UHGV virus genome: UHGV-0071260
From: a virus
Direction: 5' to 3' (one strand)
Length of the DNA stretch: 24,179 nucleotides
In this document: piece after piece, positions 5,689-20,318 of the stretch
Numbering within the stretch: position 1 is the first letter of the stretch
Layout of the letters: each line of letters opens with the position of its first letter
Translations under genes and position numbers: made by a program
Notes under the pieces: generated by a model
Databases searched by the model: none
Seen by the model: only the letters and a program-made list of their open reading frames with translations
What the model was told of the DNA's origin: nothing

Positions 5689-6086
5689 ATGAATATTCTT
5701 TTACCCTGCCTTACCCGCCATCGAACAATCGCTATTACCGACATTCGCGCGGTTTTCACTATATAAGCAAAGTGGGGAAGGAATATCGGGAACAAGTAAG
5801 AGACATCATCGAGCTATTAAATTTAAACATTAACCTACCTTGCCGACTGGCAATCGCCATCTATGCCGCGCCGCCGGATAACCGGATCAGAGATCTGGAT
5901 AATATCCCTAAATGCCTTTTTGATAGCCTTACCTATGCCGGATTTTGGAAGGATGACGGGCAAATTGACTCAATAAAAATTGTCCGCTGTCGGAAGGTAA
6001 AAGGCGGACGCTTGTTTATTAAGATCCGCGAACGCGGCGACCTGCTACCCGATATTGACGAATACGCAACGAATATATGGGGGTGA
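5685..6086 (+). CDS. rusA: RusA-family Holliday junction resolvase
   Basis: N-terminal FTLPYPPSNNRYYRH and RDLDN, GFWKDD, KGGRL motifs as in E. coli RusA; ATGA overlap with ninG. Confidence 0.9.
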   Translation: MNEYSFTLPYPPSNNRYYRHSRGFHYISKVGKEYREQVRDIIELLNLNINLPCRLAIAIYAAPPDNRIRDLDNIPKCLFDSLTYAGFWKDDGQIDSIKIVRCRKVKGGRLFIKIRERGDLLPDIDEYATNIWG

Positions 6087-6325
6087 CAATGGAGCTAATA
6101 AACATTGTTGTTAAATGTACTCAATCAAGCGTCGATTTTTTCACTGAAGGTAAAAAATATTCAGGTTTTATAAAGCATGGGTGCTTTGCTTTCATTCTAC
6201 AAGACGATCTTGTATCGGATTTCGACGACGCCTACGCATGGCGATTAGTCCAGTATTTCCCGTCAAAAAATGAGTATTTTTTGCAGGGTCATTTTAAAAC
6301 TCGGTTTAAGGTGGTGGAGAAATGA
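6077..6325 (+). CDS. hypothetical small protein
   Basis: 82-aa ORF overlapping rusA stop. Confidence 0.45.
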   Translation: MGVTMELINIVVKCTQSSVDFFTEGKKYSGFIKHGCFAFILQDDLVSDFDDAYAWRLVQYFPSKNEYFLQGHFKTRFKVVEK

Positions 6326-6504
6326 AAAACGAAGTTAAAGATCTGCAAATAGATATTCAGCGCGATGAGCATGATTTAGCTACAGTCCGACAAATCCAGG
6401 CTTTTCATATGCGCGAATTGCTTGCATTGAAAGAGCTTGAGAGGAAGTTAGTCCAGTCTATTTCTGATCGTAAACGCCTTATTGCTCGTTACGGGGGCAA
6501 ATAA
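6322..6504 (+). CDS. hypothetical small protein
   Basis: 60-aa ORF, start overlaps upstream stop. Confidence 0.4.
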   Translation: MKNEVKDLQIDIQRDEHDLATVRQIQAFHMRELLALKELERKLVQSISDRKRLIARYGGK

Positions 6505-7226
6505 TGAATCTGGAATCAATTCTTAAATTCCACTTCCCAAAATCACCGCGTTTGTCAGATGAAAGCCGGGGCACGTCCCCGGATGCGCTTAATACTACGG
6601 ATGCGCTAACTGCCGCTGGTATGGCGCAATCGCGCGTAGAGCTTGGTTATAGCGCTTTTCTGGGAAAGATGGAACTATCACAAGCCGAAAAACATAAGGC
6701 TGTAGTTTTGCTTACAGAGCGTTTAAGAGCTATGGCAAAAGATTACGAATACGTCATGGAGCTGGACGAGGACAAACGCAATGATCTTATTATTCTTGTT
6801 GCCGTTTTCGCGTTTCGGGATTACTGCCAGAGTGCCGCGACAGAAAAAACTTGTATGGATTGCGGCGGATATAAATTTACGTTTGACGACTACGGAGAAA
6901 AACACCTTTGCAAAAAATGCAAGGGGCATGGAAAAGTTCGCAATCATTGTAAACGATGCAAAGGGCGCGGCGAGATACCGGATAAAGCAGCCAGTGAAGC
7001 AGCGGAAATGCCAGTGTTCAAAACGTGCCAGCATTGCGGCGGGCGCGGGTACTCGCGTTTCCCTGTAGATCTTGTCCGGCGTGCGGTTAATCAGCTTGTA
7101 TTTCCGGTAAGCCGAACAACGTGGTGGAAGAAATACCGTGCTTTCTATGAAGACGCCATTACTGAATTGTTCAAAGAAGAGGCGCGGGCTGATAACGAAA
7201 TTAAACGAGTGACACGGGGTGAATAA
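6504..7226 (+). CDS. Q: late-gene antitermination protein Q-like, with an expanded DnaJ-type zinc-finger region
   Basis: Lies directly after ninG-rusA as in lambdoid phages; N-terminus MNLESILKFHFPKSP recalls Q82-type antiterminators; four CxxCxGxG-like repeats. Confidence 0.6.
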   Translation: MNLESILKFHFPKSPRLSDESRGTSPDALNTTDALTAAGMAQSRVELGYSAFLGKMELSQAEKHKAVVLLTERLRAMAKDYEYVMELDEDKRNDLIILVAVFAFRDYCQSAATEKTCMDCGGYKFTFDDYGEKHLCKKCKGHGKVRNHCKRCKGRGEIPDKAASEAAEMPVFKTCQHCGGRGYSRFPVDLVRRAVNQLVFPVSRTTWWKKYRAFYEDAITELFKEEARADNEIKRVTRGE

Positions 7227-7426
7227 TGAAACAACAAGAGATAAACATGAAAAAAGTGATTATTCTTTTTGAAGATTATAACGGTGAGGCATGGTGCAAG
7301 TATTTAAGCGGTGTTGAAGCACGGTTGGCGCTAACGTTTATTGCCGCACTGGATGAAGGGGATTTTAACGCTATTCCGGTTAAGCCAGTAGAAATCTATC
7401 GTCGCGAGGTGAAGGATGAAGCCTAA
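7226..7426 (+). CDS. hypothetical small protein
   Basis: ATG overlaps Q stop (TAATG); GGGGTG RBS. Confidence 0.4.
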   Translation: MKQQEINMKKVIILFEDYNGEAWCKYLSGVEARLALTFIAALDEGDFNAIPVKPVEIYRREVKDEA

Positions 7427-7685
7427 ATTAAAAGAACATCTATTCGCAAAGCTGGTTAATAATCTGACATTAACGGCGCGTGTGTGCAGTGATACGCAAC
7501 AATTAAGGGCGTGGATAGTAAGGGATTTAAGAAAATACATCGAGCCAGGCGGGCCAGGTGACGAGATGACTATGGACAAGGCCATCAAGCGCCGTTCGGC
7601 TGATTGGTCAGTAAGTAACACAGGATTAACCGGATACATCGAAGGCTATAACGACTGTTTACAGGATCATAGCGATGGCAAATAA
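7416..7685 (+). CDS. hypothetical protein
   Basis: GAGGTGAAGG RBS; overlaps upstream stop. Confidence 0.45.
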   Translation: MKPKLKEHLFAKLVNNLTLTARVCSDTQQLRAWIVRDLRKYIEPGGPGDEMTMDKAIKRRSADWSVSNTGLTGYIEGYNDCLQDHSDGK

Positions 7686-7974
7686 ACACTTACATTTGAA
7701 TTTAAAAGGTGAATACTTCCACGCCATCCGGGCAGGAAAGAAGGTGGAAGAATACCGGCTTTACAATGAATACTGGCGTAAACGCCTGGAGGGGCGGGAG
7801 TACACAAGATTAATCATTAAATGGGGTTATCCATCGGATGATGAGAAAGACCGGATTATCGTATTGCCTTACATGGGGTACGAAATCAAGTTGATTCAAC
7901 ATCCACTATTCGGCCCTGATCCGGTGAAGGTATTCGCAATAAAGTGTGATATTTACTGGCAATACAGATTTTAA
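7675..7974 (+). CDS. ASCH-domain-like protein
   Basis: GxKxxExR signature (AGKKVEEYR) near the N-terminus, 99 aa. Confidence 0.5.
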   Translation: MANKHLHLNLKGEYFHAIRAGKKVEEYRLYNEYWRKRLEGREYTRLIIKWGYPSDDEKDRIIVLPYMGYEIKLIQHPLFGPDPVKVFAIKCDIYWQYRF

Positions 7975-7987
7975 GGTTTGTTGAGCA

Positions 7988-8197
7988 ATGAAAAAAGCTG
8001 GCCTGTCAATTAGCCGCGTATTGTGCGGTGATGAAAACGAGATCCGCATAGAAATTAAATTTAGCACTGGTAAAGAGATAATTCTTTACACGACACCTGA
8101 AAACCTGACGCTGGCGCTTACTGGTAAATCTGAAACGCCGTGCGACGTCCGGTTGCGCAATATTAAAATTAAGGAATTAAGGAAGGGTGAAAAATGA
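7988..8197 (+). CDS. hypothetical small protein
   Basis: 69-aa ORF. Confidence 0.4.
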   Translation: MKKAGLSISRVLCGDENEIRIEIKFSTGKEIILYTTPENLTLALTGKSETPCDVRLRNIKIKELRKGEK

Positions 8198-8394
8198 AAA
8201 GTAGAATGAAACGCCTGGTAAGAGCTTACGACAAGGCTTTAATGGTTTTTAGTGACCTGCGGCACAATAAACGTGAGCGTCGTAAATGGGCGCGTTTATT
8301 TGCTAAAGAATGGCACGAAGATGATGCGACAATCGACTGCCAAAGAGACGCAGACGAATTAGCAGATGATAACGTTTACTATATGATGTGGTGA
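8194..8394 (+). CDS. hypothetical basic small protein, paralog A of a tandem pair
   Basis: GGAAGGGTG RBS; clear similarity to the next gene (MKSxxKRxxRAYDKALxxFxxL...KRxRRxxARL...WH...DAD..A.DN.YY). Confidence 0.5.
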   Translation: MKSRMKRLVRAYDKALMVFSDLRHNKRERRKWARLFAKEWHEDDATIDCQRDADELADDNVYYMMW

Positions 8395-8398
8395 CAAT

Positions 8399-8635
8399 AT
8401 GAAAAGTAACCGTAAGCGCATGATAAGAGCATATGATAAAGCGTTAATAGAATTTAACGAACTATCACGCAGTAAGCGCCGCCGCAGACAATTCGCGCGA
8501 CTTCTTTTTCATGTATGGCACGACGCTGATTTCTTTTTTGATGCCAGACATATAACACAGGAAGATGCGGATAATATAGCTTACGATAACATTTACTACA
8601 TATTGAGAAGGTGGGAATATGCAAATAATCATTGA
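8399..8635 (+). CDS. hypothetical basic small protein, paralog B of a tandem pair
   Basis: Shares the N-terminal and central motif with 8194-8394. Confidence 0.5.
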   Translation: MKSNRKRMIRAYDKALIEFNELSRSKRRRRQFARLLFHVWHDADFFFDARHITQEDADNIAYDNIYYILRRWEYANNH

Positions 8636-8984
8636 TTACCTTTGCCACGCTGCAAATACGCTTTTCGGTTTTTATCAGCATCCATTCCTGAAAGAATGGG
8701 ACGAAATGCTTAATGACATCATTGATAAAGGGTTAATAGTTGAAGTGGACGAGCTAACGATAAAATTCAATTACGAAGGCAAAGAATATGAAATATGGGT
8801 AGGGAATAGATGGTATTCATACGGGCATATTTATTCAATTGGCGGCAAATACATTAAACGGAGCCAGGAGTTTAGACCGCGATTCCGAACAATGCGCCGT
8901 CTGCGTGACCTGCATATGAATATATTTGAAGATCAGAAAGCGTGTGAACTATTCAAGATCTACGGTGATAAATCATGGAACTAA
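8619..8984 (+). CDS. hypothetical protein
   Basis: 121-aa ORF with AAGGTGGG RBS. Confidence 0.5.
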   Translation: MQIIIDYLCHAANTLFGFYQHPFLKEWDEMLNDIIDKGLIVEVDELTIKFNYEGKEYEIWVGNRWYSYGHIYSIGGKYIKRSQEFRPRFRTMRRLRDLHMNIFEDQKACELFKIYGDKSWN

Positions 8985-9205
8985 AAATCTGGCAGGCTAT
9001 CGACGTTGTTGATAACGAATTAACCATGTTTGCCACTGATGGAAAGCGCGTGGTGATCGCTACATGGACGCGCAACCATGATGATATAGCTTTTCGTCGC
9101 AAGGCTGCGGAGTGGCTTTTCTCTGATGAAGGCTACACGATGAATATCTCCCAGCTTGCCAGAATGAAGGATGAAAAGCTGGTAGATAGTTACACGACTG
9201 CATAG
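8975..9205 (+). CDS. hypothetical small protein
   Basis: 76-aa ORF. Confidence 0.4.
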   Translation: MELKIWQAIDVVDNELTMFATDGKRVVIATWTRNHDDIAFRRKAAEWLFSDEGYTMNISQLARMKDEKLVDSYTTA

Positions 9206-9215
9206 TGGGGCAAAT

Positions 9216-9449
9216 ATGCGTATCTATGAACACAAGCGGGATAAAACCCGCTTTTTTGTTCGTGCTGGCGTGGCGTACCAGTATCACGAATGTGGATATA
9301 TTGAGGTGCTTGCTTACAACCTGGATTTCGAACAAGAAAAAGAATGGTTTGACTTTAAGATTTACCGTAAGCGCAAGCCAACGCGCGACGAACGACACGC
9401 TATCCGGGACTTTTTAATCAGCATAGACCACTGGGAGGCAGACGAATGA
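9216..9449 (+). CDS. hypothetical small protein
   Basis: GTGGGG RBS, 77 aa. Confidence 0.45.
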   Translation: MRIYEHKRDKTRFFVRAGVAYQYHECGYIEVLAYNLDFEQEKEWFDFKIYRKRKPTRDERHAIRDFLISIDHWEADE

Positions 9450-9673
9450 AAGTTAAATTCTTGCACGATCACGGATACCAGTCATTGAAACAGGTTGTTG
9501 GTAAGGTCGTTAATGTCGTTCATAGCGATGATATTACTTGCATGATTAATGGTGCTGATCTCATTGCCGCTGGTGCTGATGACCATTACATCAATCCGGC
9601 GTGGTCGTATACGTTCAGCTTGGGCGATTTCGTCGGGGACAAGGGGCGCGGGCTTGAGATTGTAGAGGATTAA
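9446..9673 (+). CDS. hypothetical small protein
   Basis: GGGAGG RBS; ATGA overlap. Confidence 0.45.
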   Translation: MKVKFLHDHGYQSLKQVVGKVVNVVHSDDITCMINGADLIAAGADDHYINPAWSYTFSLGDFVGDKGRGLEIVED

Positions 9674-9677
9674 CGGT

Positions 9678-9893
9678 ATGGACGTTTACGAAGATCTCTA
9701 CCTACAGACCAATAGCCGCACTTTTTATTTTCTGAAAAGCGGCGTCGTATATCGCAGCGACAACGGGGTGATAATGAAAGAGTGTTTATTTAAGCGTAAA
9801 GACCTACTCGAAGATCTGGTTTTTGCCGGGATATTTCGTAAACGTCCGGCTAACCTGGAAGAAGAAATGTTGATCGACGAGGTGTTAAAATGA
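9678..9893 (+). CDS. hypothetical small protein
   Basis: GAGGA RBS. Confidence 0.45.
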   Translation: MDVYEDLYLQTNSRTFYFLKSGVVYRSDNGVIMKECLFKRKDLLEDLVFAGIFRKRPANLEEEMLIDEVLK

Positions 9894-10135
9894 AAGTGAA
9901 TTATTTCAGGGCAAAAGACAAGGCAACAGGAAAGCGGGTGGCTATCCTGGTTAATGAAGCAAATTATATGTTTGTTCTCCAGCCGTGGTGCATAGCTGAC
10001 TATAACGATGATTATCGCCGTCACGCTGCGCGGCGGGCGGTCGGGATGAAAGGCTGGCAGCCTCGCGACATGCTTAATTACTGCGACTGGAATCTGATAG
10101 CAAAATACACGGTCGATTATAAAGGGGTTTTCTGA
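9890..10135 (+). CDS. hypothetical small protein
   Basis: GAGGTG RBS; ATGA overlap. Confidence 0.45.
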   Translation: MKVNYFRAKDKATGKRVAILVNEANYMFVLQPWCIADYNDDYRRHAARRAVGMKGWQPRDMLNYCDWNLIAKYTVDYKGVF

Positions 10136-10347
10136 TGCAAGTTAAATGCTCATACTCAAGCAATGACAGTGTTTTCACGATTGGGAGTATTTATGACGTT
10201 CACATCGTTTATGGCAATGAAGCACACACAATGAGTAATTGCCTTGCCTTGATTGATAATCATGACGAAATATGGGTATTCAGGCCGAGCTATGAAGGCG
10301 GTGAAATATCCGGTGTAGGTTTTGCTGCCAGCTTTGAACGTTATTAA
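10135..10347 (+). CDS. hypothetical small protein, tandem paralog family member 1 of 4
   Basis: AAGGGG RBS; motifs FTIGSIYDV and IDNHDEIWVF shared with the next three genes. Confidence 0.5.
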   Translation: MQVKCSYSSNDSVFTIGSIYDVHIVYGNEAHTMSNCLALIDNHDEIWVFRPSYEGGEISGVGFAASFERY

Positions 10348-10357
10348 AGGGGCAACA

Positions 10358-10615
10358 ATGAAACATTTATATTTTGAGGTATTGCAGACGCGCGACCGCA
10401 ATATTTTTGAAGAAGGGAAGATCTATTGCGGCGTTCAACTCCACGGCGCACCGGGCGGTGATGGTGCAATGGCGATAACTGGCGATGATGATAAAGTTTA
10501 TTTCGCTTATGTTAGCCATATCAATAACGCCGCTGGTTTGTATATTTATCGCATAGTGCATGATTTCCGTGAGATCGCGGAGTTTTGCGCCCGCGAAGGC
10601 AGTAAACCGGAATGA
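10358..10615 (+). CDS. hypothetical small protein, tandem paralog family member 2 of 4
   Basis: AAGGGG RBS before ATG 10358; motifs FEEGKIYCGV and AITGDDDKVYFAY. Confidence 0.5.
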   Translation: MKHLYFEVLQTRDRNIFEEGKIYCGVQLHGAPGGDGAMAITGDDDKVYFAYVSHINNAAGLYIYRIVHDFREIAEFCAREGSKPE

Positions 10616-10625
10616 GTGAGGTGCT

Positions 10626-10865
10626 ATGAATCGGAAACATAGATACCAGTGCACATACTCACGATGCAGCGCGTTTTTTAAGAATGGCAAGATCTACGAG
10701 GTTGACGCGGCATTGGTTGACGCAAAGGATCAGGAATATATTCATGCCATTACTGACGACCAGGGGCAGTTATGGCGATTTTATAAGATGGGTTGTGGCA
10801 CGGCGCTTGTTTATGCGCGTGCTGGTGGTGGTGCTTTTGCTGCGTTTTCGTATGTAGGGGTATGA
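10626..10865 (+). CDS. hypothetical small protein, tandem paralog family member 3 of 4
   Basis: GAGTGAGGTG RBS; motifs FKNGKIYEV, AITDDQGQLWRFY, GAFAAFSY. Confidence 0.5.
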   Translation: MNRKHRYQCTYSRCSAFFKNGKIYEVDAALVDAKDQEYIHAITDDQGQLWRFYKMGCGTALVYARAGGGAFAAFSYVGV

Positions 10866-10867
10866 AA

Positions 10868-11086
10868 ATGATTTTAACGTGTAACGAATCGAAATTGGGC
10901 TGCTTTGAGGAAGGCGTACAGTACACGGCTGAAAAACCGATGGGATTGTCTCCTAAATTTCCGTTTATCGTCGTGACTGACACTTACGGTCACTTATGGT
11001 ATGCAGGGCCGCTAGGCGGTATTGGTCGTTATGTTGTCCGTAGTTCGGATGGGGCGATGAAGGTTACTTTTACGGAAGAAACGTAA
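10868..11086 (+). CDS. hypothetical small protein, tandem paralog family member 4 of 4
   Basis: ATG 10868 (or 10862) after AGGGG; motifs FEEGVQYTA and VVTDTYGHLWYAG. Confidence 0.5.
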   Translation: MILTCNESKLGCFEEGVQYTAEKPMGLSPKFPFIVVTDTYGHLWYAGPLGGIGRYVVRSSDGAMKVTFTEET

Positions 11087-11087
11087 A

Positions 11088-11103
11088 TGTGATCTGTATC
11101 ACA
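11088..11103. promoter_or_regulatory. CRP-consensus-like palindrome TGTGAT-N4-ATCACA (copy 3 of the GTGAT-N4-ATCAC motif)
   Basis: aaaTGTGATctgtATCACAagg matches the CRP consensus core TGTGA-N6-TCACA; intergenic, directly after a stop codon. Confidence 0.35.
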
Positions 11104-11112
11104 AGGTTTACG

Positions 11113-11144
11113 AAATGGCATTGTTTCGGCAGTGCCATTTTGTT
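11113..11144 (+). terminator. putative intrinsic terminator or regulatory hairpin
   Basis: 11-bp stem with one mismatch (AAATGGCATTG / CAGTGCCATTT), 6-nt loop, followed by TGTT. Confidence 0.4.
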
Positions 11145-11184
11145 ATAAAGAAGCTGAAGAGAGAACGATGCGGAGGGTAGAAAA

Positions 11185-11463
11185 ATGAAACGCTGGATTA
11201 ACAAAGAAGTCGAATCTCGCTTAAACGCATTTTGGGAGATGGTGGAGAAAGAAGACCCAGCACACGCTGCAAGCCCTTACCTGAACAACATCGAATATCA
11301 CTACATTGCAGCAAACAACGCGGAGTTCGAAGAAGAAGGTGGAGCCGACAAGTTCGCACAAAGCAACGCATTCAACAACGCAAACGAAATGATGATGGCA
11401 GTCATCGAACAGGCAGAGGAAGACTACGAATGCAAATCACTTGAATTTGCACGCATGGCATAA
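11185..11463 (+). CDS. hypothetical acidic protein
   Basis: GGAGGG RBS; 92 aa. Confidence 0.5.
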   Translation: MKRWINKEVESRLNAFWEMVEKEDPAHAASPYLNNIEYHYIAANNAEFEEEGGADKFAQSNAFNNANEMMMAVIEQAEEDYECKSLEFARMA

Positions 11464-11472
11464 GGGGGAACC

Positions 11473-11613
11473 ATGAACGCTAACGCTAAATATCCGGCCT
11501 GGGTTTTCGAACTATACGCCCGCTACTTTGAAGTATTGGCACCAGGTGAAGAAGCATTAAGCATTGACGAATACGCGGAGTGCTTAGGATTTAGAGGAGA
11601 CGAAGAAGCATAA
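11473..11613 (+). CDS. hypothetical small protein (46 aa)
   Basis: Strong AAGGGGGA RBS 5 nt before ATG; read from sequence, below the track cut-off. Confidence 0.4.
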   Translation: MNANAKYPAWVFELYARYFEVLAPGEEALSIDEYAECLGFRGDEEA

Positions 11614-11618
11614 AACAC

Positions 11619-11634
11619 GGGGCCGGATGGCCCC
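11619..11634 (+). other. GC-rich stem-loop (GGGGCC-GGAT-GGCCCC) in a short intergenic spacer
   Basis: Perfect 6-bp GC stem with tetraloop; no U-tract after it. Confidence 0.3.
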
Positions 11635-11656
11635 ATCAAATCAGAAGGGTGTAATC

Positions 11657-11950
11657 ATGAAAAGCGCTAAATTTATTGCTTGCTGTTTTGTTGAAGTTCC
11701 CTATAACGATGCGTTCTATCACGCTACTTTTACCGATAAGAATGGGAATGATCACGTTATTGTCGGCAAGCGTGGTGACTGGCTTTATATAACTGATGAT
11801 GATTGCATTTTCACTAAAAATCAGTTGCAAAAACTGGTTATCGGTAAACAGGAACAGGAAGACTATCAAATCATCCCGGTGGAAAGACTGAAAAGGGAGC
11901 AGAGAATTAAACGCGCTCAAGAGGAATTAAATAACATAAAGGGTATGTGA
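11657..11950 (+). CDS. hypothetical protein
   Basis: ATG 11657 with GAAGGGTG RBS; the track start at 11627 lies inside the hairpin. Confidence 0.5.
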   Translation: MKSAKFIACCFVEVPYNDAFYHATFTDKNGNDHVIVGKRGDWLYITDDDCIFTKNQLQKLVIGKQEQEDYQIIPVERLKREQRIKRAQEELNNIKGM

Positions 11951-11951
11951 T

Positions 11952-12206
11952 ATGAAAACAATCAGACTATGGCGCGGCAATAGCCGACTTGATGGTGAGT
12001 ACATCCGCGTGATTGAAGATGTTAATCGTGGTCGGTTTTATGAATTGGCATACAGCGAAAAAAGGGAGAAAGAATATCTGAACGAATCGACCCCTATGTG
12101 GTGTAAAGTGGCTGGCCTTGCCTCAATTCTGCGCCACGGGTTTTATGCAGATCATAACACGCTAATTGATGCCGAACTGGTGACAACTCTTTACGAAGGA
12201 GAATAA
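11952..12206 (+). CDS. hypothetical small protein
   Basis: AAGGG RBS; 84 aa. Confidence 0.5.
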   Translation: MKTIRLWRGNSRLDGEYIRVIEDVNRGRFYELAYSEKREKEYLNESTPMWCKVAGLASILRHGFYADHNTLIDAELVTTLYEGE

Positions 12207-12209
12207 ACA

Positions 12210-12533
12210 ATGAGTAAATTTATCAGCGTTAAGGTTTTCCGTGGCAATTTTCCAGAAGATAAAGAAATTGGACAATTCGCAGGTGAACGTGGCGTATGTT
12301 TCCGTGTAGCTACTGAAGACGATGCGCACGTTAAATGCTTTCACGTATCTGAACCGCCTTTTAATGCAGACCATCTTGAAGACCTGAATAGAATTAAAAG
12401 CCTTATTTTTGCCTATCTGGCGTTCCATGGCATAGCTGATGCTGATGTTGAATTGGTTGGGGCCGAACTGGTGGCAGAATACAAAATGACTGAAGGCGAA
12501 AACGGAGGGGTGGAAATTGAGCGCATCAAATAA
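12210..12533 (+). CDS. hypothetical protein
   Basis: AAGGAG RBS; 107 aa. Confidence 0.5.
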   Translation: MSKFISVKVFRGNFPEDKEIGQFAGERGVCFRVATEDDAHVKCFHVSEPPFNADHLEDLNRIKSLIFAYLAFHGIADADVELVGAELVAEYKMTEGENGGVEIERIK

Positions 12534-12768
12534 GCTGTATAAAGTCAGGTGTAAAGGCGAATACCCTGGCTTTACGGTTGGTTGCGAATATCTGGGCCAC
12601 ATTGGGTACGGCCCTTTCGGTGAGTTGGGAATGAATACGATTGACGACGACGGCGACAGCAGGACGCTCGATCTTGATACGGATGACTTCGAATATATCC
12701 CTCCAGTTACTTACCGTGCCGTAGATGATTTCCTGGCTGAACAAGAAGATGATGAAGAGGATGATTAA
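12517..12768 (+). CDS. hypothetical protein with acidic C-terminus
   Basis: Putative TTG start at 12517 preceded by GGAGGGGTGG; start codon uncertain. Confidence 0.4.
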   Translation: MSASNKLYKVRCKGEYPGFTVGCEYLGHIGYGPFGELGMNTIDDDGDSRTLDLDTDDFEYIPPVTYRAVDDFLAEQEDDEEDD

Positions 12769-12770
12769 CT

Positions 12771-12911
12771 ATGGATGACGAATACGTTAACAATTTTATT
12801 GTTATGTTTCTTAGTGAAAATTGGCGCATGTTTGAACATTATTGTTTTGAGCGCGGGGAAAATGCTGAAGAAATATATCAATATTTAGGCGGGGAGAAAG
12901 AGGATGATTGA
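12771..12911 (+). CDS. hypothetical small protein (46 aa)
   Basis: ATG directly after upstream stop; read from sequence, below the track cut-off. Confidence 0.3.
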   Translation: MDDEYVNNFIVMFLSENWRMFEHYCFERGENAEEIYQYLGGEKEDD

Positions 12912-13098
12912 ATGTCTTATCATTGCTGTGTTTCTCCTTTATATTGCTGGCGCTATCCTGATGTCTTGTTTTATCAAATCTAATGATCTCGATCGTGGTG
13001 GTCTTGAGATTCCTTTCTGGCCTGTAGCGGTGTTTATTGCTCTCGTAGATGCCGCGCGCGCGCAGATCAAAAGGGTTATTAAGGAGCGCAAGAAATGA
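12904..13098 (+). CDS. small membrane protein
   Basis: GGGGAGAAAGAGG RBS; hydrophobic N-terminal helix IIAVFLLYIAGAILMSCFI. Confidence 0.45.
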   Translation: MIECLIIAVFLLYIAGAILMSCFIKSNDLDRGGLEIPFWPVAVFIALVDAARAQIKRVIKERKK

Positions 13099-13277
13099 TT
13101 GAAGATGGTATATACGCCGTAACACTAATCGACAAGATGTTTTATCGCGTAGAGGGTGGTGATATTCGCGTTTGCGTTAGCGATGGTGAGTGGGTAGCGC
13201 CAATCATCAAGACGACGCGAGAAACAATTAAGATCTGGCTTGATAATGGCGATTTGGTGAAAGTTAGTGATTTGTAG
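13095..13277 (+). CDS. hypothetical small protein
   Basis: AAGGAG RBS; 60 aa. Confidence 0.45.
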   Translation: MIEDGIYAVTLIDKMFYRVEGGDIRVCVSDGEWVAPIIKTTRETIKIWLDNGDLVKVSDL

Positions 13278-13339
13278 CCATAATCGCGCATAAAAAACAA
13301 ATAGATTAAAATATTTCCTAACAATGCGAAATTGTAATT

Positions 13340-13362
13340 GCCCGGCCCGCGCCGGGTTTTTG
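13340..13362 (+). terminator. intrinsic terminator upstream of the holin gene (candidate tR'-like element)
   Basis: Stem CCCGGC / GCCGGG with loop CCGC followed by TTTTT; in a 104-bp AT-rich intergenic region. Confidence 0.55.
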
Positions 13363-13381
13363 CTTTGTTGGAGGTAAATCT

Positions 13382-13582
13382 ATGTTCGACAAAATACGGG
13401 AGGCGTGCGCGTATGCAGTAGGGGCCGTAACGGCCTTTTTTGGTGCGATAACCATTAATGATGTTGCTGTCTTTGTGGGTATCTTATCAACCGTAGGCAC
13501 ATTTGCCGTTAACTATTACTTCAAATCACAGGAGAACAAGCGAGCGCAAGAGGAACACGACGCGCGAATGGGGAATAAGTAA
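13382..13582 (+). CDS. class II holin (pinholin-like)
   Basis: 66 aa with two hydrophobic helices and a charged C-terminus (YFKSQENKRAQEEHDAR); directly upstream of a SAR endolysin. Confidence 0.7.
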   Translation: MFDKIREACAYAVGAVTAFFGAITINDVAVFVGILSTVGTFAVNYYFKSQENKRAQEEHDARMGNK

Positions 13583-13583
13583 C

Positions 13584-14075
13584 ATGATTAACCAATCGCT
13601 GAAAAACCGATTAACTAAGGCGGCGGCTGGTGGAGTATTAGCCATTGCATCCGTTTTGCTTGTATGGGTTGAGGGTACGGCTTACGAGCCTTATTACGAT
13701 ACCGGAGGCGTGCTAACTGTATGCAATGGCATAACTGGACCTGATGTTGTCCCAGGTAAGAGATACACACCGGATGAATGCGAGAGACTTTTACAAAAAC
13801 ACTTAGCCGTTTATAAAAAGGCGGTAGATCGTTATGTAAAAGTTGACATGAATGACTACCAACGCGCCGCGCTAATTAGCTTTTCATACAATATCGGGGT
13901 TGACGCTTTCAAAAAATCAACCTTGTTAAAAAAAATAAACAAAGGCGACTTTAAAGGGGCGTGTAAGGAGTTAGATCGCTGGGTATATGATAACGGGCGA
14001 TACATACAGGGCTTAAAAAATCGTCGCGATATTGAGCGCACCGTTTGTGAGTGGGGCGTAAATGATGGAAAGTGA
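13584..14075 (+). CDS. SAR endolysin (phage lysozyme, T4-lysozyme fold)
   Basis: N-terminal signal-anchor-release helix AAAGGVLAIASVLLVWV; catalytic E-x8-D-x5-T spacing (EGTAYEPYYDTGGVLT); close resemblance to P21 R; track ORF 13503 starts upstream of the likely ATG. Confidence 0.9.
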   Translation: MINQSLKNRLTKAAAGGVLAIASVLLVWVEGTAYEPYYDTGGVLTVCNGITGPDVVPGKRYTPDECERLLQKHLAVYKKAVDRYVKVDMNDYQRAALISFSYNIGVDAFKKSTLLKKINKGDFKGACKELDRWVYDNGRYIQGLKNRRDIERTVCEWGVNDGK

Positions 14076-18921: not shown

Positions 18922-18947
18922 TAAACATGTATTCAGGAGTAAACATT

Positions 18948-20318
18948 ATGCCATCCAATTTAGAATTGGCGGTTAATGCTGCCTTGTCACAACGCCAGGC
19001 GGCCTATGCCCGCTATGCAGCGGCACATCCGTTCACTATGGGGATAGATGCCAAACGTGATGCTGCGTGGAGCGAATACGGATTCAAAGAAGAGATCACG
19101 TATCACGATCTATACAAACTGTACAGACGCGGCGGCATCGCTCACGGTGCTGTAGAAAAGATTGTTACGACTTGCTGGCGCACCAAGCCAAAGATGATTG
19201 AAGGAACTGAAGACGAGAAAGCGAAAAAGGAAACACCGTGGGAAAGAGAAATCAAGAAGAAATTTAACAACAGATTTTGGCGCACTGTTGCTGAATGTGA
19301 TCGCCGCCGCCTCATTGGTCGTTACTCTGGTCTGTTAATTCATATCAGAGATAACAAGCCGTGGGATCAGCCAGTGACAAAAGGCGTAGGCATTGCAAAA
19401 TTTACCCCTGTGTGGGCTGGCGCTCTTACACCGAAGGACTTCGAAGAAAACCCGGATAATGAAAACTATGGCCTGCCAACGTGGTGGGAATACAAAGAAC
19501 GCATTAACAGTAAGACCATTGCCAGAAAGATCCACCCTGACCGCATATTCATCTTTGGCGACTATTCTGATGATGTCATCGCTTTCCTTGAACCTTCCTA
19601 CAACGCATTCGTATCACTGGAAAAAGTGGAAGGCGGTAGTGGTGAATCATTCCTGAAAAACGCAGCGCGTCAGCTTGCCATTTCGTTCGATAAAGAGATT
19701 GACTTCCGTTCCCTGGCTGCAACATACGATTGCGACGTTACAGAGTTACGCGAAAGATTCAATGAGGCTACGGCTGAAATGAATAAGGGTAATGACGTAA
19801 TGATGGCGTTACAGGGTGCGACAGTAAGCCCGCTGGTTACTGCCGTATCTGACCCGTCATCAACCTATGACGTAAACCTGCAAACCGCCGCCGCTGGTGT
19901 TGATATTCCAACCCGCATCTTGGTTGGGAACCAGCAGGGAGAACGCGCATCAACCGAAGACCTGCGTTACTTCAACAGCCGCTGCATGACCCGCAGGGAG
20001 GAAATCGGTGGCGAGATTGAAGATCTGTTCCGCAAGATGGCAGATCTACGCCTTATCAGTATGCCAGTAGATGTATCAGTGCTATGGGACGACCTTAACG
20101 CCATGACCAAAGCAGAGCTACTGGAAGCCGCAGACAAGATGGCGCAAATCAATCAGGCTTGTTTGGCTACTGGTGAAGAAATATTTAGCGGCGATGAGAT
20201 CCGCGAGGCTGCCGGATACGATGGCCCAGCCAGTGAAGTAGAAACGGAAGAGGATGACGATGATGAAGGTGAAGAAAATAATCAGGCGAATACCTCCAGC
20301 CGCGATAATGCCATCTAA
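18948..20318 (+). CDS. putative portal protein
   Basis: Position immediately after terL; about 457 aa; acidic C-terminal tail; AGGAG RBS before ATG 18948. Assigned by synteny only. Confidence 0.55.
   Translation: MPSNLELAVNAALSQRQAAYARYAAAHPFTMGIDAKRDAAWSEYGFKEEITYHDLYKLYRRGGIAHGAVEKIVTTCWRTKPKMIEGTEDEKAKKETPWEREIKKKFNNRFWRTVAECDRRRLIGRYSGLLIHIRDNKPWDQPVTKGVGIAKFTPVWAGALTPKDFEENPDNENYGLPTWWEYKERINSKTIARKIHPDRIFIFGDYSDDVIAFLEPSYNAFVSLEKVEGGSGESFLKNAARQLAISFDKEIDFRSLAATYDCDVTELRERFNEATAEMNKGNDVMMALQGATVSPLVTAVSDPSSTYDVNLQTAAAGVDIPTRILVGNQQGERASTEDLRYFNSRCMTRREEIGGEIEDLFRKMADLRLISMPVDVSVLWDDLNAMTKAELLEAADKMAQINQACLATGEEIFSGDEIREAAGYDGPASEVETEEDDDDEGEENNQANTSSRDNAI

Follow-up and report, generated by a model that had tools for sequence, protein, structure and literature searches.

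A fixed gene slot holding one or two anciently diverged PHROG 8758 paralogs in the mEpimmI coliphage UHGV-0071260

Virus genome UHGV-0071260, a stretch of 24,179 nucleotides that we call the window, belongs to an mEpimmI (mEp021-like) temperate phage of Escherichia coli, a group described in PMC11893012. Among its many small genes are two neighbors, here called copy A and copy B, that a preliminary description had picked out as a tandem pair of basic paralogs. We find that they are functional, anciently diverged paralogs of the family PHROG 8758 and that they occupy a fixed slot of one or two cassettes with exact boundaries. Judged from their divergence and their relatives, they represent an old paralogy rather than a duplication that arose in this phage, and the pair appears to have been kept and reshuffled by recombination between phages. 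The explanation as a whole, in which old paralogs in a recombining slot would be expressed as delayed-early genes and would encode a polyanion-binding helical bundle, is one that we hold with moderate confidence.

Both open reading frames (ORFs) read directly from the sequence with the limits and lengths first given, and they lie 4 nt apart on the plus strand.

Copy A, 8194-8394, plus strand: 66 aa, ATG start, 'type 1' allele of PHROG 8758.
Copy B, 8399-8635, plus strand: 78 aa, ATG start, member of the 'B' lineage.

The start codon of copy A and the stop codon of g69, the gene before it, share the ATGA at 8194-8197, and the end of copy A, ...DNVYYMMW-TGA, is typical of the family. Formal alignment, which the preliminary description had proposed as a check, gave significant pairwise similarity: BLASTP aligned A with B at 34 of 69 positions (49% identity, 68% positives, one 4-residue gap, E=3e-21). 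When all 24 ORFs of the accessory block were compared, no other paralog pair came close to this one (E=5e-15). The motifs listed earlier (MKS, KR, RAYDKAL, F, L, KR-x-RR, AR, WH, DAD and A-x-DN-x-YY) are present and conserved family-wide, and the N-terminal half is basic as described, with a net charge of +11 in A and +10 in B. A protein identical to copy A is found in E. coli FAH and in the related loci L007-L010, and one identical to copy B is recorded from 152 contigs. Both ORFs are real coding genes. The possibility that they are spurious is ruled out by the selection signal, as the proportions of nonsynonymous and synonymous differences (pN and pS) are 0.29 and 0.75 between A and B and pN/pS is 0.04-0.19 within allele types.

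Three segments of these proteins recur in the analysis.

Arginine-rich stretch of copy A (codons 21-34), 8254-8295, plus strand: DLRHNKRERRKWAR, the loop and first half of helix 2.
Equivalent arginine-rich stretch of copy B, 8459-8500, plus strand: ELSRSKRRRRQFAR.
Variable central segment of copy A (codons 35-50), 8296-8343, plus strand: allele-defining, end of helix 2 and loop.
Equivalent variable segment of copy B, 8501-8560, plus strand: 4 residues longer than in A.
C-terminal extension of copy B, 8612-8635, plus strand: W-EYANNH-stop.

Within the arginine-rich stretch, K26, R29, R30, A33 and R34 either never vary across the family or are conserved to at least 90%. The extension of copy B is accounted for at its 3' end, where the TGG-TGA usual in other alleles is now TGG-GAA, so that the frame reads on, adds EYANNH and overlaps the start of g121 (ATG at 8619) by 17 nt. 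Other members of the B lineage have different ends (..REWD, ..SECN).

The homology search, also proposed as a check, placed both proteins in PHROG 8758 at E ~1e-24, with residues 1-65 of A matching at E=2.3e-24 and residues 1-70 of B at E=1.3e-24. The profile has 151 positions, of which A and B cover only 71-151. Positions 1-70 have no matching residues in either protein and may come from fused or mis-started members, for example the ASCH-family chimera P0037 described below. PHROG 8758 is a narrow family of small phage proteins of 62-78 aa. A family profile search of 1.84 billion cluster representatives gave 12 hits, and when 5.8 billion clusters were searched with a word-seeded profile, 68 clusters (90% identity) came back, nearly all of 62-78 aa, unnamed or labeled 'hypothetical', with E. 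coli and phage-sized contigs as sources. In a one-genome-per-species contig collection there was no family locus, and no candidate stretch encoded a relative. Neither the duplication, nor the paralogs, nor the tandem two-copy state is described in PMC11893012, the paper on this phage group, and a literature search returned no mention of phrog_8758 or of the accession numbers found.

Copies that are adjacent, on the same strand, 4 nt apart and clearly similar are what a recent in situ tandem duplication in this phage lineage would leave behind, and the preliminary description had suggested that the region evolves by local gene duplication. The divergence of the pair argues otherwise. A and B have 63% nucleotide identity with saturated synonymous sites (pS 0.75), and each has nearer relatives among the alleles of other phages than in its neighbor. 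They are sisters in 0 of 200 bootstraps, while the B clade and the type-1 clade are each recovered in 100% and both include genes from other phages. In addition, orthologues of B stand behind four different first-copy alleles. The saturated synonymous sites, the bootstraps and the orthologues elsewhere exclude a duplication within this phage, so that recent duplication is highly improbable and evolution of the region by local duplication is, in that sense, not borne out. A four-member family at 10135-11086, which had been cited as an independent second duplication, is only weakly supported and much weaker than the A/B pair. Just one pair, 10135 and 10626, is related at E=2e-5 pairwise (0.002 within the block), and a multiple alignment gives 17-26% identity to the first member. 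That family may be real but very old, and it provides no demonstration of ongoing local duplication. An 83-aa ORF at 12517-12768 seems by eye to have the same F-x-x-G-x-x-Y ... DD-x-G pattern as this family.

The slot itself was defined by scanning all ORFs of 43 IMG/VR loci plus phage and E. coli records with a hidden Markov model (HMM) of the family, for a total of 50 loci. Across these related loci the family gene keeps one position, preceded by the ASCH-like gene or by g69 and followed by g121. The genes come in the same order throughout: Q, g66a, an optional ORF, g89, the ASCH-like gene, optionally g69, one or two family genes, g121, g76 and g77. About 39 of the 50 loci have a single copy and 11 have two, fractions that are rough because the loci are partly redundant. 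The two-copy state is thus a minority polymorphism. Of 5426 complete E. coli genomes, 35 contain a prophage that matches the whole window, and about 4 of these 35 look tandem from the match length; two of the four, FAH and Ecol_244, were confirmed by hmmsearch. The M1/5 prophage of E. coli, 99.8% identical to the window, has the pair, and the phage mEp044 has a single copy. The phages mEp021 and mEp515 have no family gene, with mEp021 passing from Q directly to g76, and this absence indicates that the family gene is dispensable for growth.

At least eight discrete allele types occur in mEpimmI phages. Common to them are the first 34 residues and, at the C-terminus, ...Q-x-DAD-x-x-A-x-DNVYYMMW, and they differ, with insertions and deletions, in residues 35-55; nucleotide identity between types is 42-72% in the central segment vs 60-90% in the flanks. 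Type 1, the allele of copy A, is the sole copy in L044-L049, and in L047-L049 this sole copy is nearly identical to copy A (one residue different, 97-98% protein identity). The B lineage has the pattern MIRAYDKALIEF..SKRRRR..F-ARxxFHxWHDADFFFDAR with 100% bootstrap support, and in the loci examined it always stands second in a pair. The first position is then taken by type 1 (the window and L007-L010), type 3 (L006, L011, L012), type 4 (L054-L059) or, in L005, a further type. Other pairs combine type 1 with type 5 (E. coli FAH) or a degenerate 62-aa copy with type 2 (L023).

These distributions bear on whether A and B form an obligate two-component pair, a heterodimer or a toxin-antitoxin-like system in which each copy needs the other. 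Their tight spacing suggests translational coupling, and the dipolar proteins could pair head to tail. However, only one copy is present in about 80% of related phages and in every lytic phage whose homologue was examined, the near-identical copy A allele stands alone in L047-L049, and the B orthologue of L010 (4001-4237) is a natural pseudogene, with a CAA to TAA nonsense change at codon 31, while the copy A upstream of it is intact. An obligate pair has therefore only a very slight chance of being correct.

The same B orthologue points to different constraint on the two positions. Within allele types pN/pS is 0.04-0.19 across all three gene regions, a sign of purifying selection that extends to the central segment (0.04-0.13), which makes this segment type-specific and not unconstrained. 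Copy A compared with L044 gives 0.08. In the B lineage the ratio is 0.40-0.56. This fits B being a partly redundant extra copy under relaxed constraint, with faster adaptive change as the alternative. The first position would thus hold a universal multi-allelic gene and the second an optional extra paralog, here of the B lineage, under relaxed constraint.

How a second cassette may enter or leave the slot is suggested by the junctions.

A/B junction, 8389-8401, plus strand: TGG-TGA-caat-ATG.

Here the last codons of copy A supply a ribosome-binding sequence, GGTGA, and B starts after a 4-nt spacer. Non-B alleles all end in GTTTAYTATATGATG-TGG-TGA with a 4-nt spacer (yAAy) and an ATG, which starts either g121 (ATGCAAATAATC) or a second family copy (ATGAAAAGTAAC). 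Since single-copy relatives have this same junction (GGTGA, yAAy, ATG) before g121, the extra copy is an exact start-to-start cassette. A similar motif, GGTGA-AAA-ATG, lies upstream of most first copies, so the family gene is bracketed by short, similar ribosome-binding/start motifs (GGTGA, 3-4 nt, ATG). Unequal or inter-phage recombination at these short repeats would add and remove cassettes, and only well-diverged pairs would persist, because near-identical tandem copies would be expected to recombine out. The two copies of L023 are separated by a junction of the 5' type, and this other junction type implies that at least two independent events gave tandems.

Other genomes contain in-frame chimeras formed by deletions between the family gene and a neighbor. 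P0037 joins the N-terminus of the ASCH-like protein to the family at a shared RKRL, and P0010 has the N-terminus of g89 and the C-terminus of the family protein. In P0009 and P0007, the family N-terminus is followed by the C-terminus of g121 and g76, respectively. The partners correspond to the window genes 7416-7685, 7675-7974, 8194-8635, 8619-8984 and 8975-9205. The joins fall at microhomologies of 1-4 residues, which suggests frequent illegitimate recombination of which the in-frame products survive.

The predicted structures provide some indication of what the proteins might do. The AlphaFold model of copy A, from a 49-sequence alignment, has pLDDT 89.6 and pTM 0.78 with helices at residues 4-23, 26-40 and 50-65; that of copy B, from a 4-sequence alignment, has pLDDT 86.1, pTM 0.76 and three long helices. 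The loop of the variable segment is modeled with the lowest confidence (pLDDT 75-78). Residues 1-38 of A have a net charge of +11 and the rest -9, with +10 and -5 in B, and the models place the basic residues on the two-helix hairpin of a compact three-helix bundle. Helical periodicity points to a hydrophobic face formed by L8/V9, Y12, A15/L16 and F19 and by W32/A33, L36 and W40, with most Lys and Arg exposed. Helices 1 and 2 of this bundle would show about 13 Lys/Arg on the surface and helix 3 would be acidic. The likeness of the basic N-terminal half to a nucleic-acid-binding helix, raised in the preliminary description, is compatible with these models and plausible, though we adopt it only tentatively.

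Beyond the mEpimmI phages, single copies of the family occur in lytic Salmonella Sashavirus phages, in the E. coli phages PDP46 and PJ16 and in a Kagunavirus, next to unrelated small ORFs. The gene thus travels alone, suggesting that its product works without a dedicated partner gene. We propose that the protein would act on its own, because no neighboring gene is conserved with the family in distant phages, that its arginine-rich hairpin would bind a polyanionic target, most likely RNA or DNA, and that the allele-specific central segment would tune partner or target specificity. Taken jointly, a dispensable bundle that acts alone, binds a polyanion through its hairpin and has its specificity tuned by the central segment is a possible rather than a probable account of function.

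Several of the same observations could be read as those of a specificity cassette, a host-takeover or anti-defence factor directed at a variable protein target, in which the central segment would set the variant recognized and two diverged tandem alleles would widen the range of hosts or competitors handled. The at least eight types differ mainly at residues 35-55 and each is under purifying selection, pairs are always of unlike types, the gene is an accessory one that is not in mEp021, it moves alone between temperate and lytic phages, and its block comprises about 24 small early ORFs without assigned function. Against this, no PADLOC model and no annotated viral structure matches the family, and there is no signal of positive selection, the between-type comparison being saturated and the within-type pN/pS low. 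The variable segment is the lowest-confidence part of the models and could be a tolerant loop that diverged long ago. A specificity cassette of this kind is therefore a rather doubtful prospect.

The timing of expression was considered from the position of the genes relative to two features beside the lysis cassette.

Promoter-like site, 13257-13284, plus strand: from a consensus scan, just upstream of the holin gene (13382).
Intrinsic terminator, 13340-13357, plus strand: strongest of the region, just upstream of the holin gene.

At the equivalent place mEp021 has the annotated terminator TERM_5, which we assume to be t5, one of the terminators demonstrated experimentally (PMC11893012, section 3.5). 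Because this putative late promoter and the terminator are located 5 kb beyond the pair, the family genes would belong with the delayed-early rather than the late genes, and Gp17, the N-like antiterminator, would let transcription of the rightward operon pass through them.

Besides the redundancy of the loci noted above, a number of points weigh against the combined reading of old paralogs, a recombining slot, delayed-early expression and a polyanion-binding bundle. The neighbor-joining tree is built on about 70 columns and does not resolve the deep branching (B groups with type 2 at 47% bootstrap); on so few columns, one ancient duplication followed by many losses would look the same as repeated stacking of alleles. 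The delayed-early timing rests on consensus scans and synteny with mEp021. No DNA- or RNA-binding family matches A or B by sequence or fold in Pfam, NCBIfam, the PDB profile search, Foldseek or BFVD. The invariant acidic residues of helix 3 could neutralize the basic hairpin inside the bundle and leave no free basic surface. Finally, the most distant members (P0013, P0066, P0067) have no Arg-Arg pair and keep the C-terminal Q-x-DAD-x-x-A...YY helix, so the most conserved functional surface may instead be the acidic helix.

The individual family and structure searches gave the following results for A and B: Pfam and NCBIfam scans, no match; PADLOC, 0 families at E up to 1; PDB sequences searched by profile, noise only (E 0.14 or worse); Foldseek, nothing below E=5; and the BFVD viral structures, no annotated analogue.

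We also compared the arginine-rich stretch with that of Gp17, the N-like antiterminator of mEp021, in which R17, R19, R20 and R24 are fully conserved and R21 less so (PMC11893012, section 3.5). The Gp17 motif DSKLNARERRRIKR comprises residues 11-24 of the translated mEp021 protein. Family residues 21-34 (DLRHNKRERRKWAR in copy A; NKRMRRRIAR in type 5) align to it without a gap, and the best match is always in the same register, with family R27, R29, R30 and R34 falling on R17, R19, R20 and R24 and the variable position 31 on R21. The best 10-mer score against Gp17 was reached by 4 (type 5), 40 (copy A) and 127 (type 2) of 1000 composition-preserving shuffles, values that are optimistic as shuffling the whole sequence destroys the clustering of arginines. 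The match of helix 2 to the Gp17 register appears to be a weak lead. A literature search on Gp17, antitermination and arginine-rich motif together gave no match.

Should the lead be followed, the family would act in the manner of Nun or an anti-N factor: helix 2 would bind boxB-type RNA hairpins, competing with or imitating Gp17, and would shut down early transcription or disturb other Nus-dependent phages. The in-register match, the coincidence of the conserved arginines and the shuffling results favor this idea. However, arginine-rich motifs are short and of low complexity, and the models predict a folded bundle for the family, whereas lambda N and HK022 Nun are largely disordered. The motif is retained in lytic Kagunavirus and Sashavirus phages, for which no N/nut system is known. 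It is missing its Arg-Arg pair in the most distant members, and the allelic variation lies outside it. We regard a Nun-like role as improbable. The related proposal that the bundle is a folded carrier of an N-like motif, modulating or sabotaging N-dependent antitermination with a specificity set by the central segment and broadened by tandem alleles, we find equally unlikely.

The surroundings of the pair are consistent with an accessory array. A megablast search with 7000-12000 matched only mEp021-like mEpimmI phages (mEp044, mEp010, mEp013, mEp554, mEp021, mEp515 and MagusPhagus) at 84-87% identity. The Q-like antiterminator (6504-7226; Pfam Antiterm E=3e-30) and the lysis cassette (holin gene at 13382) enclose about 24 tightly packed small plus-strand ORFs. 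There is almost no intergenic space, and the Q stop overlaps the start of the next gene (ATGA). Neighboring genes match PHROGs without assigned function, except for the Q antiterminator and a sub-threshold ASCH hit. The mEpimmI loci and the lytic-phage homologues have no neighbor gene in common, which makes guilt by association uninformative. An Rfam scan of 6000-14000 found no RNA family.

Some features of this block were noted in passing. Besides its Antiterm domain, the Q-like protein has a segment like a DnaJ-type CXXCXGXG zinc finger, which Pfam DnaJ_CXXCXGXG scores at E=1e-5, below cutoff. In the interval 7226-13277, between Q and the pR'/tR'-like pair, nearly all of the approximately 24 small ORFs are without assigned function, and mEp021 has only 8 ORFs there. 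The 99-aa gene at 7675-7974, two genes upstream of the pair, is labeled 'RNA-binding protein' in some RefSeq prophages; its Pfam ASCH hit stays below threshold (E=0.01, 17 bits vs a cutoff of 21.2), and it matches phrog_625 and is missing from the relatives L014, L032, L034 and L036-L038. The gene directly upstream of copy A, g69 (7988-8197, 69 aa, phrog_1222), is itself polymorphic, being present in about 20 of the 50 loci. Identity along the block changes gene by gene (in L004, g81 at 100% beside g66a at 51%), and these jumps imply mosaic exchange at gene boundaries. A terminator-like hairpin and T-run (AAGCGGGATAAAACCCGCTT TTTTGT) lies mid-operon at 9234-9253, within the first codons of a 77-aa ORF (9216-9449). 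Farther away, the gene at 18927-20318, between terminase and a minor head protein, has an orthologue in related prophages that RefSeq labels 'anti-CBASS protein Acb1 family protein'. With a Pfam Phage_portal_3 match at E=8e-19, its product is most likely the portal protein, and the Acb1 label is probably misleading.

Collectively, the pair offers an example of how a phage accessory array evolves, with one fixed slot, one or two copies, many distinct alleles and boundaries at ribosome-binding/start motifs. It corrects the simple 'local duplication' reading, and it shows an extra copy under apparently relaxed constraint, with pseudogenization and in-frame fusions to neighbors in related genomes. 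A functional study could draw on at least eight naturally occurring alleles, on natural phages with one and with two copies, and on mEp021 as a natural knock-out. Should nut-site RNA prove to be bound by the arginine-rich helix, or should the alleles be specificity cassettes, the family would be a new group of small regulators or counter-defence proteins in common gut coliphages.

One point of comparison is the group of mEp021 Gp17, lambda N and HK022 Nun. With these the family may have a short arginine-rich helix in common, its conserved arginines spaced i, i+2, i+3, i+7 in register with Gp17, which belongs to the same phage group and the same early transcription program. The Nun motif RDRRRIARW resembles the family consensus R-x-RR-[KR]-[WIF]-AR. 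No overall homology to N, Gp17 or Nun was detectable and no N-family Pfam hit was obtained. Where a member of that group would be expected to be extended or disordered, with Nus/RNAP-binding regions, the models of the family show a compact bundle (pLDDT 86-90) whose third helix is acidic, and the family occurs in lytic phages as well. A helix-turn-helix of the type present in small phage regulators such as Cro and Xis was found in A and B neither by profile nor by geometry. The C-terminal domain of Sld7 (3x38) and the SRI domain of Set2 (2a7o) resemble the family in topology only; these are generic three-helix bundles of eukaryotic origin, 5-14% identical to the family and functionally unrelated to one another.

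At the level of the operon, the promoter-terminator arrangement beside the holin gene is similar to lambda pR'/tR', although here it lies about 6 kb downstream of Q, so that Q would be that far from its presumed site of action, unlike in lambda. The lambda nin region is likewise a set of packed, translationally coupled ORFs of 45-120 aa without assigned function in the rightward early operon, mosaic and individually dispensable. It is positioned upstream of Q, whereas the block described here is downstream of Q and before the late promoter, and Pfam and PHROGs scans found no sequence relationship to any nin protein. Other members of PHROG 8758 itself, including Salmonella phage Sasha gp14 and Kagunavirus VIPECOTH07_00006, have the size, the MKS start, RAYDK, KR-x-RR and DAD...YY of A and B. 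All are annotated 'hypothetical protein', so that membership in a family without an attached function gives no mechanism. The family is already catalogued and uncharacterized, and the pair adds to it a polymorphic slot of one or two copies.

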